From the NCBI GenBank assembly GCA_040079935.1, contig JBEBJI010000006.1, positions 17,077-81,076 of the forward strand: a DNA stretch of 64,000 nucleotides. Reading direction: 5' to 3'. The DNA comes from Methylotenera sp. GTDB taxonomy: Bacteria; Pseudomonadota; Gammaproteobacteria; Burkholderiales; Methylophilaceae. A model generated the notes under the pieces. It did no database searches. It saw only the letters and a list, made by a program, of their open reading frames with translations, and was not told the origin of the DNA. This document shows positions 2,359 through 62,808 of this stretch, piece by piece; position 1 is the first letter of the stretch, and each line of letters begins with the position of its first letter. The position numbers and the translations under genes are program-made.

Positions 2359-4428
2359 CTAAAAGAGTGTCGTCTGGGTTTTGATGTCACTGTCTGACGA
2401 TGTTTGACTGGAATTAGTTGCTAATAAGCTTAACAGTCCCACTTCATCAATGATTGCGACGTTTAAATCCTGCGCTTTTTCAAGCTTACTGCCCGCCTCA
2501 GTGCCTGCGACAACGTAATCAGTTTTCTTGGAGACGCTACCACTTACCTTGCCACCAGCCGCTTCTATTAAGGCTTGTGCGGCATCACGACTTAAATTTG
2601 GCAGCGTGCCAGTGAGCACCAAAGTTTTACCTAGTAATACGCCTGTAGCCCTTTGTTTTCCTGCCGCTTCAGGCCATGCAACGCCTAAATTCTGCATCGA
2701 TTGAATCACCTCGCGATTATGCGGCTCGCTCAAAAACTGCAATATTGATTCTGCCACAATTGGTCCAACATCATTTACTTCAAGCAATGCTCCAGAAGGC
2801 GCATCCAGCAAGGCTTGCAGGCTGCCGAAGTGTGCGGCTAAATCTTTAGCAGTCGCTTCGCCCACATTGCGAATGCCCAAACCGTAAATAAAACGTGCCA
2901 GCGTGGTGTGTTTGCTTTTATTCAACGCATCAATTATGTTTTGCGCTGACTTTTGCGCCATGCGATCCAAACCCGCCAGCGTGACCACATCCAGCTTATA
3001 AATATCGTCCAAATGATGCACCAAATTGGCCTCGACCAACTGATCTGCGAGTTTTTCGCCCAGTCCTTCAATGTCTAAAGCACGGCGCGAAGCGAAATGT
3101 GTAATCGCCTGCTTACGTTGTGCGGGGCAAAATAAACCGCCTGTGCAGCGCGCAACCGCTTCATCCGCAGGTCGTTCAATGTGCGAGCCGCATTCTGGAC
3201 ATGTGGTAGGCATGCTAAAAATCCGCGCGGATATTGGTCTGCAGGCCATATCGACAGAAACCACTTCGGGAATCACATCGCCCGCGCGGCGCACAATTAC
3301 CGTGTCGCCGATGCGAATATCTTTGCGCTTCATCTCGTCTTCGTTGTGCAGTGTGGCGTTGGTGACGTTTACGCCGCCCACAAACACGCTTTTTAAGCGC
3401 GCCACGGGCGTAATTGCGCCAGTGCGCCCTACTTGCACGGTAATGTCTTCTACGATAGTTGTTGCCTCTTCCGCAGGGTATTTATGGGCGATGGCGAATC
3501 TTGGCGCGCGCGAAACAAAGCCGAGTTCATCTTGTTGCGCAAAATGGTTCACTTTGTAAACCACGCCATCAATATCGAACGGCAAGCTGGAACGCCTTTT
3601 TCCAATTTCTTTAAAATATGCCAGCAAGCCCGCTGCGCCTTGCTTTCTGGCGCGCAAATCACTCACAGGAAAATGCAATTTCGCCAAATAATCCATGGCT
3701 TCTGTGTGTGAATTTAATGTTGGCGCACCTTTAGCCTCGCCTAAACCATAAGCAAAAAAATGTAGCGGGCGCGTAGCGGTAATTTTTGGGTCAAGCTGAC
3801 GCAAACTACCCGCTGCGGCGTTGCGCGGATTGGCGAATAATTTTGCGCCTAGCTTTTCTTGATTGATATTCAGTTGCTCAAAATCTTTTTTAAGCATTAA
3901 CACTTCGCCGCGTACCTCTAATAATTCGGGTGGTCTGGAAGCCAATATCCGCGCGGGTATAGCGCGTATGGTGCGCAAATTATGTGTTACATTTTCACCG
4001 GTATAACCATCACCGCGCGTCGCGCCTTGAGTAAATAGGCCATTTTCGTAAGTCAACGTAATCGCGAGGCCGTCAAACTTGGGTTCAACTGCATATTCCA
4101 CGCTTTCAACGCCCAAGCCTTCGCGAATGCGCTTATCAAACGCCAACAGCTCATCATCGCCAAACGCGTTATTAAGCGATAACATGGCTTGGCGATGCGT
4201 GACACTTTCAAACGCGCCAACCACGCTACCACCTACGCGCTGAGTAGGCGAATCTACAGTAATCAGTTGTGGGAATTTTTGTTCTAAATCGACCAGCTGG
4301 CGGTACAAGCCATCATATTCACTATCTGAAATGGTCGGCGCATCGAGCGTGTAATATTGATAGTCGTGCAGTGCAATTTCAGAAACAAGTTGAGCAACTT
4401 GTTTGCGCGCCGCTTCTATATCAGCCAT
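2359..4428 (-). CDS. ligA: NAD-dependent DNA ligase
   Basis: EPKFDG adenylation motif, TRGDG, EVRGEV, C4 zinc finger, HhH repeats, C-terminal BRCT. Confidence 0.99.
3211..3249 (+). repeat. 39-bp repeat, degenerate copy inside ligA
   Basis: CATGCTAAAAATCC GCGCGGATATT GGTCTGCAGGCCAT (peptide [13 protein letters not shown]). Confidence 0.7.
3930..3968 (-). repeat. 39-bp repeat, degenerate copy inside ligA
   Basis: GTGGTCTGGAAGCC AATATCCGCGC GGGTATAGCGCGTA ([10 protein letters not shown]). Confidence 0.6.
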
Positions 4429-4436
4429 AAGCTAAA

Positions 4437-61057: not shown

Positions 61058-62808
61058 TAATTTTCTTGCCCGCGTTTCATGGTACCGCTTGAAACCGTGT
61101 CATTTATTATTCGCTCTGATTCGTTGACACTTATTGGTGTTAATAATCTGGCTGGCACGGGTTGTTTTAGCAGAGTGTAAAGATTACTCAAATTGCGGCG
61201 ATACAACCTATCAAAGCTGCTGGCGCTGGATGCGGGGTTATAATCGCCCAACCACCAAAACCAATCTGAACCTTCACACACCGAGAGTTGATCTTCACAA
61301 TTTTTTTGTTCTTTTGCGCTTAATGTGCCCGCTTGCATGACTTTGTCATACACTTTTTTCGCATCGCATAAAAAATCCCAACCTACGTTTTTATCTTTAT
61401 TGCCAATCCAAGTGCTTAAAGTGCCGTAAACCCAGCTACCAGCAGCGATTTCAGGCAAATTGCCACAGAAAACTTTATATGGACTTTCTTCAGGAGCCCG
61501 TACAGCTTGCAATATTTCAGATTGCGTCACCATCTCAATATTTGGATGATTTGCCAGTGCCTGATATAACTCAGTTAAAAAATAATAGCCGTTGTAGGGG
61601 TAATACTCCCATGCGTTTTCACCGTCTAAAATCACGCTTACCACAGGATTCTCTGGTCTTTGAAAAGTAGCATGAATATGCTCCAGCTGACCAATAAAAT
61701 CGCGCACTGCATCGGTGCTGTGCAATTTGGCGTACTCAAACCCAATTCTGTCCGAGAGTCTGTCGTCCCTGAAAAAACAGACGATCTCATCTTTTTTATC
61801 GCTCACTTTATACGGTCTATATAAGTATTCATGACGTGAAACCAGCGCTTTGCTTGGGTTGGACTTCAGCAAGCTGTGAGTTAATACGCCCTCGCCAGAG
61901 GCCGCCCATTGCACGCCTTGTTGCGCCATTAGCAATAGACTTTCCTTTGAAACAGCACCCTCTGCAGGCCACATGCCTATTGGCTTTACGCCGAATCTCT
62001 GCTGATGCGAAATTTGCGCGTCTTTGATGTGATTAATCGCCCTCGCCTCACCTCCATTGTATTGTGCATTTACTGGCAAGGCAGCGTCTGGCATAGCATC
62101 CAAGGTGCTTTTAAAATCCAATAGCAAAGGTAATATCGGGTGTTGATGCGGCGTGCTAGAAATCTCAATCTGACCGCGTTGTTGCAAAGCTTTGTAGCGC
62201 GGAATTAAACCTGCAACCACTTCGCCTATCAAATCAAATAAAGCGCGTCGATCTTGATAACTAAAATGGCTGCCTTTTATCATCAACAATTGCACCAATT
62301 TGTTATCACGTCTAATGCTTTCACCCATCCATGCCAAATGGTACCAAACCAGTAAATCTGCTTTGTACTGACCTGAAAAATATTGCAAATTAATATCGTC
62401 GCCCGATTGGCTAGCCACCTGATAAAGATTATACAAGCGCTGATATTGCGCATAAGGCGCCAACATTTTTTCATGATGACTTTTGAAGCAGCTATCTACG
62501 ATCAATTGACATTGATCTGCTGCAAGACCATCTAAACTTTGCTTGCCTAGCAAATCCAATAGCGGATCACGCATTTTATTCGCTTTAAACTGCGCGACGT
62601 AATCTTCCAACTGATCCAATAAAATTGGCACAAAATTAAAGCTCACACGTGCTTTCACATTTTTTTCAAGGTGATACGCCATGTCAGAATAATCTTTTAT
62701 GGCGTGTAAATATGTCCAAGGAAGCACGTACTCACCTGAAATAGAATCGCGATAATCAGGCTGATGCATGTGCCAATACAGGGAGATTAAAAGCTTAGGA
62801 GGTGTCAT
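61057..62808 (-). CDS. Glycoside hydrolase family 57
   Basis: HMHQP, GMWPAEG, LDGENAWE, EGSDWFWW. Confidence 0.93.
   Translation of the reverse strand: MTPPKLLISLYWHMHQPDYRDSISGEYVLPWTYLHAIKDYSDMAYHLEKNVKARVSFNFVPILLDQLEDYVAQFKANKMRDPLLDLLGKQSLDGLAADQCQLIVDSCFKSHHEKMLAPYAQYQRLYNLYQVASQSGDDINLQYFSGQYKADLLVWYHLAWMGESIRRDNKLVQLLMIKGSHFSYQDRRALFDLIGEVVAGLIPRYKALQQRGQIEISSTPHQHPILPLLLDFKSTLDAMPDAALPVNAQYNGGEARAINHIKDAQISHQQRFGVKPIGMWPAEGAVSKESLLLMAQQGVQWAASGEGVLTHSLLKSNPSKALVSRHEYLYRPYKVSDKKDEIVCFFRDDRLSDRIGFEYAKLHSTDAVRDFIGQLEHIHATFQRPENPVVSVILDGENAWEYYPYNGYYFLTELYQALANHPNIEMVTQSEILQAVRAPEESPYKVFCGNLPEIAAGSWVYGTLSTWIGNKDKNVGWDFLCDAKKVYDKVMQAGTLSAKEQKNCEDQLSVCEGSDWFWWLGDYNPASSASSFDRLYRRNLSNLYTLLKQPVPARLLTPISVNESERIINDTVSSGTMKRGQEN

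Follow-up and report, generated by a model that had tools for sequence, protein, structure and literature searches.

What is the 39-bp palindrome that recurs both between and inside the genes of a 64-kb stretch of a Methylotenera sp. genome, and what keeps it there? The window considered here, meaning the whole stretch of 64,000 nucleotides (C67:17077-81076), lies within an 81-contig, 2.415-Mb assembly, and a first-pass annotation had described in it a dispersed inverted repeat with an asymmetric 11-nt core. We found that the palindrome is one genome-wide DNA word of about 360 copies, that inside genes it replaces codons instead of being inserted, and that the constraint upon it acts on the DNA sequence, and not on RNA structure or on a peptide, in either orientation and at gene ends as well as within genes. 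As to what maintains the word, we tentatively favor a molecular drive resembling that of DNA-uptake signal sequences and involving a putative reader protein, which on our analysis ranks first among several readings.

The word has the skeleton CTGnnnnCC-nnATGGATATT-GGnnnnCAG, with a near-invariant 11-base centre and ATGC/GCAT outer arms, and its logo (AAAA-n-A-n-ATGCCCTGCAAGCC-GCATGGATATT-GGCTTGCAGGGCAT-n-T-n-TTTT) holds about 25 informative positions across 39 bp. The assembly as a whole contains 179 exact matches to the 11-mer core, where 1.6 are expected, and an nhmmer search (E <= 0.01) recovered 363 unique copies, split 173 to 190 by strand, for a density of about one copy per 6.6 kb. Pieces of the word also topped all 10- and 12-mers in an unbiased k-mer scan, with the maximum over CGCATGGATATTGG. 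The excess over a reversed control was 179-, 9-, 2.7-, and 1.9-fold at zero, one, two, and three mismatches, respectively, and such a graded excess of mismatched forms is the pattern reported for uptake sequences (PMC1939737). Around the copies, coding as well as intergenic, A/T-rich peaks stand at about ±25, 35, 45, and 55 nt from the centre, symmetric about the core and with a period of 10-11 nt, so that the conserved context reaches about ±57 bp. The uptake signal sequence (USS) of Haemophilus likewise has helically phased A/T flanks. The k-mer scans additionally returned hexanucleotide tandem arrays, of a GACTCC type in this genome and of an ATACTG type in a relative (G021, C1:1-400000), and another small palindromic repeat, of the CCGTCATACCG...CGGTATCC / CGTCATTCCG...CGGAATGACG type, was seen beside a copy of the word at C7:12700-12850 and also in the sister species G064.

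Within the window, about 20 copies had been proposed, and a scan using a 39-column ungapped position weight matrix (PWM) built from the genome-wide copies, with a threshold score of >=0, located 21 sites against 0 in the shuffled window. As the matrix is ungapped, the constant 11-nt spacing between arms that had been described applies to all 21 sites, which lie on both strands, again as described. The IUPAC consensus of the first-pass annotation, allowed up to 3 mismatches, matched 4 window sites versus 0 in 100 shuffles, and the majority of the window copies are thus degenerate; a repeat finder run on the window returned a family of more than 10 copies with the centre GCATGGATATT. Six copies are intergenic, at exactly the positions first given for them (one, at 29430, is weak), and 15 lie within open reading frames (ORFs). 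The earlier observation that the intergenic copies mostly lie just 3' of a gene was borne out, since five of the six start 11-62 nt past a stop codon. Host gene identities were verified by Pfam and PDB searches, which upheld the earlier assignments of copies to ligA (two), smc (three), DUF2157, mutL, and malQ (two) and raised the GT41 copies from two to three; a further copy suggested for a GH57 gene fell below the matrix threshold and amounts to a 24-nt partial match. The sites are as follows.

3211..3249, + strand: degenerate copy in ligA (PWM 14.5; core GCGCGGATATT), ungapped against the residues of E. coli LigA.
3930..3968, - strand: degenerate copy in ligA (PWM 4.1), ungapped against E. 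coli LigA.
7230..7268, + strand: weak copy in smc with intact core and poor arms (PWM 0.4); the gene has SMC_N and hinge domains.
7473..7511, - strand: copy in smc (PWM 26.1; nhmmer E 7e-4).
7608..7646, - strand: degenerate copy in smc (PWM 8.9).
11413..11451, + strand: copy in a 163-aa ORF that matches no Pfam family and may not be a real gene (PWM 46.4).
13269..13307, + strand: intergenic copy 36 nt past the stop of ORF 12616..13233 (PWM 49.2).
21062..21100, + strand: intergenic copy 11 nt past the stop of ORF 19573..21051 (PWM 60.1; hairpin -22 kcal/mol).
26669..26707, + strand: intergenic copy in the convergent gap between ORFs 23921..26656 (+) and 26716..27786 (-) (PWM 45.2).
29430..29468, + strand: weak intergenic copy with core TCATGGATATT and decayed arms (PWM 10.0).
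31718..31756, - strand: intergenic copy, a near-perfect palindrome 20 nt past the stop of ORF 31776..33146 (-) (PWM 59.4; hairpin -24.6 kcal/mol, z -4.2).
41101..41139, + strand: intergenic copy with A-run and T-run flanks in the convergent gap between ORFs 40383..41039 (+) and 41161..42945 (-) (PWM 53.0).
43443..43481, + strand: copy in a Methyltransf_30 (MnmC-like) gene by Pfam, peptide RMDISLQ (PWM 39.1).
44969..45007, - strand: degenerate copy near the start of a TPR-GT41 gene, peptide ELQGNIHAALG (PWM 18.0).
45675..45713, + strand: top-scoring copy of the window, in the TPR-GT41 ORF between the TPR and GT41 domains by Pfam, peptide SRMDIGSQG (PWM 63.1).
46206..46244, + strand: copy in the GT41 domain gene (PWM 45.3).
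49550..49588, + strand: degenerate copy in a class I/II aminotransferase gene by Pfam, core GCATCCCTATT (PWM 20.3).
50900..50938, - strand: degenerate copy in a DUF2157 gene by Pfam, core GCACCAATATT (PWM 31.5).
54005..54043, + strand: copy in the mutL linker, peptide DALQANIHAVAGDA (PWM 45.0).
60127..60165, - strand: degenerate copy in malQ (PWM 16.3).
60763..60801, + strand: copy in malQ, peptide DALQGNIHAALGDAY, with no insertion versus 120 homologues (PWM 39.6).
61957..61995, no strand assigned: possible remnant in a GH57 gene, CTGCAGGCCACATGCCTATTGGCT, the partial match noted above (PWM below 0).

Three of the intergenic copies could be followed into relatives: that at 13269 has an orthologous copy in G064; that at 26669 is missing from the orthologous gap of G064, where 27 nt separate the aligned flanks versus 84 nt here; and at the gene end marked by the copy at 31718, relatives have either a copy in the opposite orientation or an ordinary terminator. 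Synteny with G064 stops exactly at the right end of the copy at 13269-13307 (window position 13307). Elsewhere in the window, two tRNA genes (10040-10112 and 10219-10291) are the sole Rfam matches, and two pairs of 51-57-nt stretches that are 75-78% identical and 2,079 nt apart (56167-56499 / 58246-58578) are probably paralogous gene segments.

How does a 39-bp word come to sit inside so many genes? Of the 368 matches in the genome, 202 (55%) fall within called ORFs, several of them in well-conserved enzymes, and 111 of these 202 read (D)ALQANIHAA(S/G)(G)DA, which is a strong frame preference; other peptides encoded by the copies include RMDIGLQG, ALEGAWILACRA, and PISMRLAGH. At six coding sites that were tested, no 13-residue insertion was found, and the length change ranged from 0 to +5 residues. 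MalQ shows no length change relative to 120 homologues, the two copies in LigA align with E. coli LigA without a gap, and GltX has 0 gaps across the element relative to its PDB homologues, while AroA, in which the 39-bp palindrome is nearly perfect, gained 3 residues relative to its PDB homologues. The AnmK of G064 is of equal length, and the site reads LQANIHAASGA here versus LQGLFNKASGA there. Simple insertion is therefore excluded for the tested coding copies. Of the three kinds of mechanism that the first-pass annotation had offered, the small inserting mobile palindrome is accordingly disfavored for coding copies, and the uptake-like and protein-site readings both remain candidates.

Are the copies conserved, and if so at what level? 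Conservation was assessed against 892 kb sampled from G064, the closest available species, in which 4-fold degenerate sites are 57.5% identical to those of this genome (n = 76,708). The word was kept at 49 of 55 orthologous sites ascertained in this genome and at 33 of 35 sites ascertained in G064, for which a neutral simulation predicts 1.3%. Comparison of orthologous intergenic copies gave identities of 87% for the core, about 94% for ATGGATATT, and 74% for the arms. Identity at 4-fold sites rises to 76.4 ± 2.6% within 30 nt of a copy's centre and returns to 55-58% farther out; hitch-hiking through recombination around the copies was rejected, there being no signal beyond 30 nt. The position profile, degenerate positions included, is the same in the two species, and the densities are 157 (this genome) and 130 (G064) copies per Mb. 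Retention and silent-site identity above the neutral expectation indicate that selection, or a directional drive, acts on the duplex sequence to maintain the individual copies. The stems, for their part, give no sign of compensatory change: intergenic copies form 10.62 of 14 pairs versus 10.55 ± 0.07 when arms are shuffled between copies, and coding copies form 8.65 pairs versus 8.98, which places the constraint on the DNA sequence. On this basis, we infer that a sequence-specific reader of duplex DNA exists.

The placement of the copies bears on what such a reader might do. Intergenic DNA makes up 8% of the genome by our ORF calls but holds 45% of the copies, and these are distributed unequally among the kinds of gaps, with 75 copies in convergent gaps (222 in the genome, 34% occupied), 72 in tandem gaps (1,256 in the genome), and 10 in divergent gaps (248 in the genome). 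In tandem gaps, the upstream stop codon is the nearer one for 64 of the 72 copies, at a median distance of 42 nt, and orientation relative to transcription is random (39:33). A replichore bias in orientation, raised at first reading as something to look for, was absent genome-wide as judged by GC skew, and a replication-polar signal of the Chi or KOPS type was rejected on that account. Spacing between copies is more even than Poisson (coefficient of variation 0.83 vs 1.00 ± 0.05), which a limit of one copy per gene end would partly explain.

An RNA-level role, in which the copies would be intrinsic terminators or hairpins presenting an ANGGA loop to a protein such as CsrA, might be expected from this placement: copies lie just past stop codons, the intergenic ones fold into hairpins of -17 to -25 kcal/mol flanked by A-runs and T-runs, and ANGGA occurs in the loops of both this word (hereafter word A) and the variant word B described below. 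We nevertheless consider it highly improbable. Half of the copies are inside genes, the stems lack compensatory change, and the random orientation to transcription means that half of the transcripts would carry the complementary loop. A simple intrinsic-terminator pattern scan does not call the copies, owing to the 11-nt loop and a T-run that starts about 4 nt past the stem, and the canonical intrinsic terminator was rejected as an identity. The CsrA family (PF02599) was absent from all 31 genomes of the genus, with positive controls, which together with the random orientation led us to reject a CsrA-binding loop. No Rfam family matched the word at either gathering or permissive thresholds, and a structured RNA was rejected given this result and the lack of covariation in the stems.

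The same placement could instead reflect a functional binding site of the host, maintained locus by locus through purifying selection and bound by a protein that wraps or bends DNA (gyrase-type, nucleoid-associated, or condensin-related), which at convergent gene ends would also aid termination or the relief of supercoiling. The symmetric, helically phased A/T tracts suggest DNA wrapped around a protein, and the occupancy of a third of convergent gaps, the even spacing, the sequence conservation without stem compensation, and the identical profile in two species all agree with such a site, as does the binding of gyrase and IHF by repetitive extragenic palindromic (REP) sequences and bacterial interspersed mosaic elements (BIMEs) in E. 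coli. We judge this reading unlikely, however. No candidate protein was identified, purifying selection would need to maintain about 25 informative positions at some 360 sites, half of them against coding constraint, and core B, a variant found on the same arms, would call for a protein altered to match. The GTDB genus, moreover, includes whole sister lineages that lack both the word and any substitute for it, and the function of the putative site therefore cannot be essential.

The distribution of the word among relatives confirms that it is, as the first-pass annotation supposed, a lineage-specific genome-wide signal, being the top over-represented oligomer here, abundant in one clade of Methylotenera, and absent from other families of the order. 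Within the GTDB genus, 16 of the 24 species sampled contain the exact 15-mer; the 16 other families of the order that were searched all lack it. The 12-mer CATGGATATTGG, present 173 times here, has 7-141 copies in nearly all sampled genomes whose MutL is at least 81% identical to that of this genome (three have 1-3) and no more than 4 in almost all more distant Methylotenera; the word is thus abundant only in the clade delimited by that MutL identity. In 400 kb of the complete genome G021, of the same GTDB genus, neither a copy nor another over-represented word was found. A search with an arms-only pattern found the same core in three other genera of Methylophilaceae with arms that are different yet palindromic, the consensus arms being CTGCAAGCC, CTGAGAGCC, and CTGGGAGCC, of which the latter two come from other genera. 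Searches of plasmid and phage collections gave no match to the word, and an origin from either was rejected, the only viral matches being single core copies with arm-like flanks on five IMG/VR contigs (L231-L235).

Relatives also possess a second form of the word. Word B shares the architecture of word A and has almost identical arms, but its core is AATAGGGACG, and it dominates the genome G054, in which 25 exact word B 12-mers were counted versus 4 of word A. In the present genome, the word B 12-mer occurs once versus 173 occurrences of the word A 12-mer, so the dialects are nearly exclusive; word B persists here as relics only, several with arm-like flanks. At the MutL and MalQ sites, some relatives have B-like sequence where this genome has word A, and the MutL site in orthologues holds the same word, the variant word B, or the unrelated peptide RQFASPVCYAEEF. 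The last of these was considered as a third dialect and rejected, because its synonymous sites vary and it is therefore conserved as protein and not as DNA.

What process could write such a word into a genome and hold it there? Under an uptake-signal-like drive, a clade-specific protein would read the duplex word and a directional force would keep each copy in place. The competence machinery would prefer fragments that carry the word, as in the mechanism of the USS of Pasteurellaceae and the DNA uptake sequence (DUS) of Neisseriaceae, and homologous replacement would spread word-improving variants by molecular drive; the word would thereby come to be written into tolerant stretches of coding sequence, and the palindromic form at gene ends would double as a terminator-like hairpin. 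In-place copies within genes, frame bias, a mismatch gradient, palindromic forms at gene ends, and near-exclusive dialects are together the signature reported for uptake sequences (PMC1939737), and it is for this combination of features, along with the phased A/T flanks, that we ranked an uptake-type drive first, while holding it as a possibility that falls short of an even chance. The constraint on DNA, the retention of copies above the neutral expectation, and the even spacing also count in its favor. Among competence-related genes, comEC is present along with 13 pilin-like ORFs, and no receptor was identified. The comEC gene (C70:130.9-133.4 kb) itself holds two copies of the word, with the peptides ALQAAWILAPS and LQTNIHETSGD.

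A number of observations weigh against this uptake-like drive. All known uptake sequences, with cores of 9-12 bp, are much shorter than a word of 39 bp with additional flanks; the density of the word, about one per 6.6 kb, compares with about one per kb for USS and DUS; and palindromic arms around an asymmetric core are foreign to both. Neither natural transformation in Methylophilaceae nor this element was found described in the literature searched, and comEC occurs in all genomes tested, element-free relatives included, which makes its presence uninformative as a discriminator between carriers and non-carriers. Silent divergence does not drop beyond 30 nt of a copy, the coding-type variant arm AGDA recurs in unrelated proteins, and most core positions are not shared between words A and B. 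The remaining contrary points concern behavior that resembles recombination or mobility, with some sites suggesting that sequence was replaced in blocks and did not drift step by step. A few intergenic copies, including that at 26669, are present in one of this genome and G064 and absent from the other with a change in length; one orthologous site has its core in the opposite orientation in the two species; at two coding sites (AnmK and one other gene), the arms are kept around an unrelated 11-nt centre in G064; and the homologues of AnmK are bimodal, having the NIH block or nothing. There are, finally, nested three-hairpin long forms that are true insertions. In these, an arm-GTAAA-arm unit and a second hairpin precede a standard element (CTGYAGCC-GTAAA-GGTCATCCCCGCAG, then AATATACCAGC-TAAA-GCTGGTTATT, then the standard copy). 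Two are present here, at C8:17046 and at C67:81313 (about 240 nt past the end of the window), and they are commoner in G064, at about 5 per 300 kb (for example, L131:6150-6290); the long-form module also occurs in frame in MalQ and AnmK homologues (LSPQNIPAEAGYSCVK).

Such behavior is what a selfish or semi-domesticated palindrome akin to REP sequences and BIMEs would display. By this account, core and arms would be copied between sites by a putative hairpin- or arm-specific enzyme or through ectopic short-patch gene conversion; conversion would be seeded by arm-like microhomology, such as D-A-L-Q-A codons, and the copying would overwrite within genes and insert between them. The mosaic long forms in both species, the in-frame module, the intergenic presence and absence with indels between close species, the flipped core, and the core exchanged as a block on unchanged arms at two sites all speak for it, as does the finding that AnmK homologues all carry the arm-like DALQA and, in two distinct lineages, gained the core as a block. 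The spread of word A 12-mer counts among sampled close relatives (7 to 141 vs 173 here), a position 3' of genes like that of REPs, and arms that vary among genera while remaining palindromic point in the same direction. Yet retention at orthologous sites is far above neutral, with the same profile in both species, a pattern not predicted by selfish decay; hairpin-reading HUH enzymes would favor stem compensation, of which there is none within the genome; and no known transposition mechanism replaces an equal length of target. Signs of insertion of the type of a miniature inverted-repeat transposable element (MITE) were mixed, in that the element-sized length difference at 26669 comes without a clear target duplication, one site has an 11-nt direct repeat, and others are messy.

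No cognate enzyme was found, either. The sole gene in this genome of the REP-associated tyrosine transposase (RAYT) type (Y1_Tnp; C58:26958-27485, 176 aa, with HUH and Y motifs) has classical GTAG REPs of its own immediately on either side (TTGTAGGGCGCAATAGTGCAGCGTATTGCGCC and variants, 3-5 copies in the genome), which differ in sequence from the word, and the logo of the word lacks the GTAG/CGTC head of such REPs, as noted at first reading. The word is missing from the flanks of the 243-aa Y1 genes found in relatives, and the presence of a Y1 gene does not track the word across the genus; a link to RAYT and its REPs was rejected on these grounds. The RAYT/REP locus (C58:26800-27620) is followed, 70 nt downstream, by a copy of the 39-bp word. 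Taking both sides together, we regard a REP/BIME-like origin as somewhat doubtful.

A further alternative is template-directed overwriting of short patches, in which the only homology used would be an arm of 9-14 nt. Another locus would be overwritten with the 11-nt core and second arm, in either orientation, through an enzyme or through template switching promoted by a hairpin. Length would be unchanged and dialects could be swapped in situ. This would be selfish DNA replicating by replacement instead of insertion, through a mechanism so far undescribed, and we think it distinctly unlikely.

The answer matters beyond this locus. Uptake signal sequences are known, to our knowledge, from two bacterial families only; if the uptake-like reading is true, free-living freshwater methylotrophs would supply a third, with a word of very different architecture, and how such words are read and evolve would be reopened. 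Should the uptake-like reading be wrong, a 39-bp sequence still overwrites codons and is held at silent sites in hundreds of genes, and either a new, replacement-type selfish DNA or an unrecognized chromosome-reading protein must be acting. In either case, the word shapes protein sequence, with peptides of the ALQANIHAA type in MutL, MalQ, AroA, GltX, and ComEC, and a third of convergent gene ends bear a copy. The case is also directly testable, as the consensus, a scrambled control, a natural second dialect with its own core, and element-free sister species such as G021, G023, and G001 are all in hand.

Several families of repeats and words invite comparison. Rickettsia palindromic elements (RPEs) are likewise palindromic repeats that stand in frame in housekeeping genes and are translated, but RPE insertions add tens of residues, whereas here resident codons are replaced and protein length changes by 0 to +5 residues. 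In cyanobacteria, HIP1 (GCGATCGC) is a hyper-abundant palindromic word that occurs in genes by substitution and is conserved across species; it lacks the asymmetric core and phased flanks of the Methylotenera word, is 8 bp long, and reaches a far higher abundance. ERIC, Correia, and other MITE-like repeats share imperfect palindromes with internal insertion variants, but they are 100-150 bp long and strictly intergenic, with terminal inverted repeats and target duplications, of which no clear instance was seen here.

The REP, BIME, and REPIN elements associated with RAYTs (Y1 HUH) come closer, being short palindromes in hundreds of copies that lie after genes and in convergent gaps, form mosaic composites, are lineage-specific, and persist for long periods at orthologous sites. 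They differ in that the Methylotenera logo runs ATGC...GCAT with A/T runs in place of a GTAG/CGTC head, the single RAYT of the genome sits between different, classical REPs, 55% of Methylotenera copies are inside genes while REPs are extragenic, and the word shows no stem compensation and is best conserved at its asymmetric centre. The USS of Pasteurellaceae and the DUS of Neisseriaceae are likewise over-represented words present in both orientations without strand bias, which enter coding sequence by substitution with a strong frame preference, show a graded excess of mismatched forms and clade-specific dialects, and are enriched 3' of genes as terminator-like palindromes (palindromic USS or DUS pairs); the USS shares, in addition, the helically phased flanking A/T tracts. 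The Methylotenera word departs from these 9-12-bp words in its 39-bp length, its palindromic arms, and its asymmetric 11-nt core, is about six times sparser, and exhibits block-like replacement, core flipping, and nested long forms. Overall, it resembles DNA-uptake signal sequences more than it does mobile hairpin repeats.

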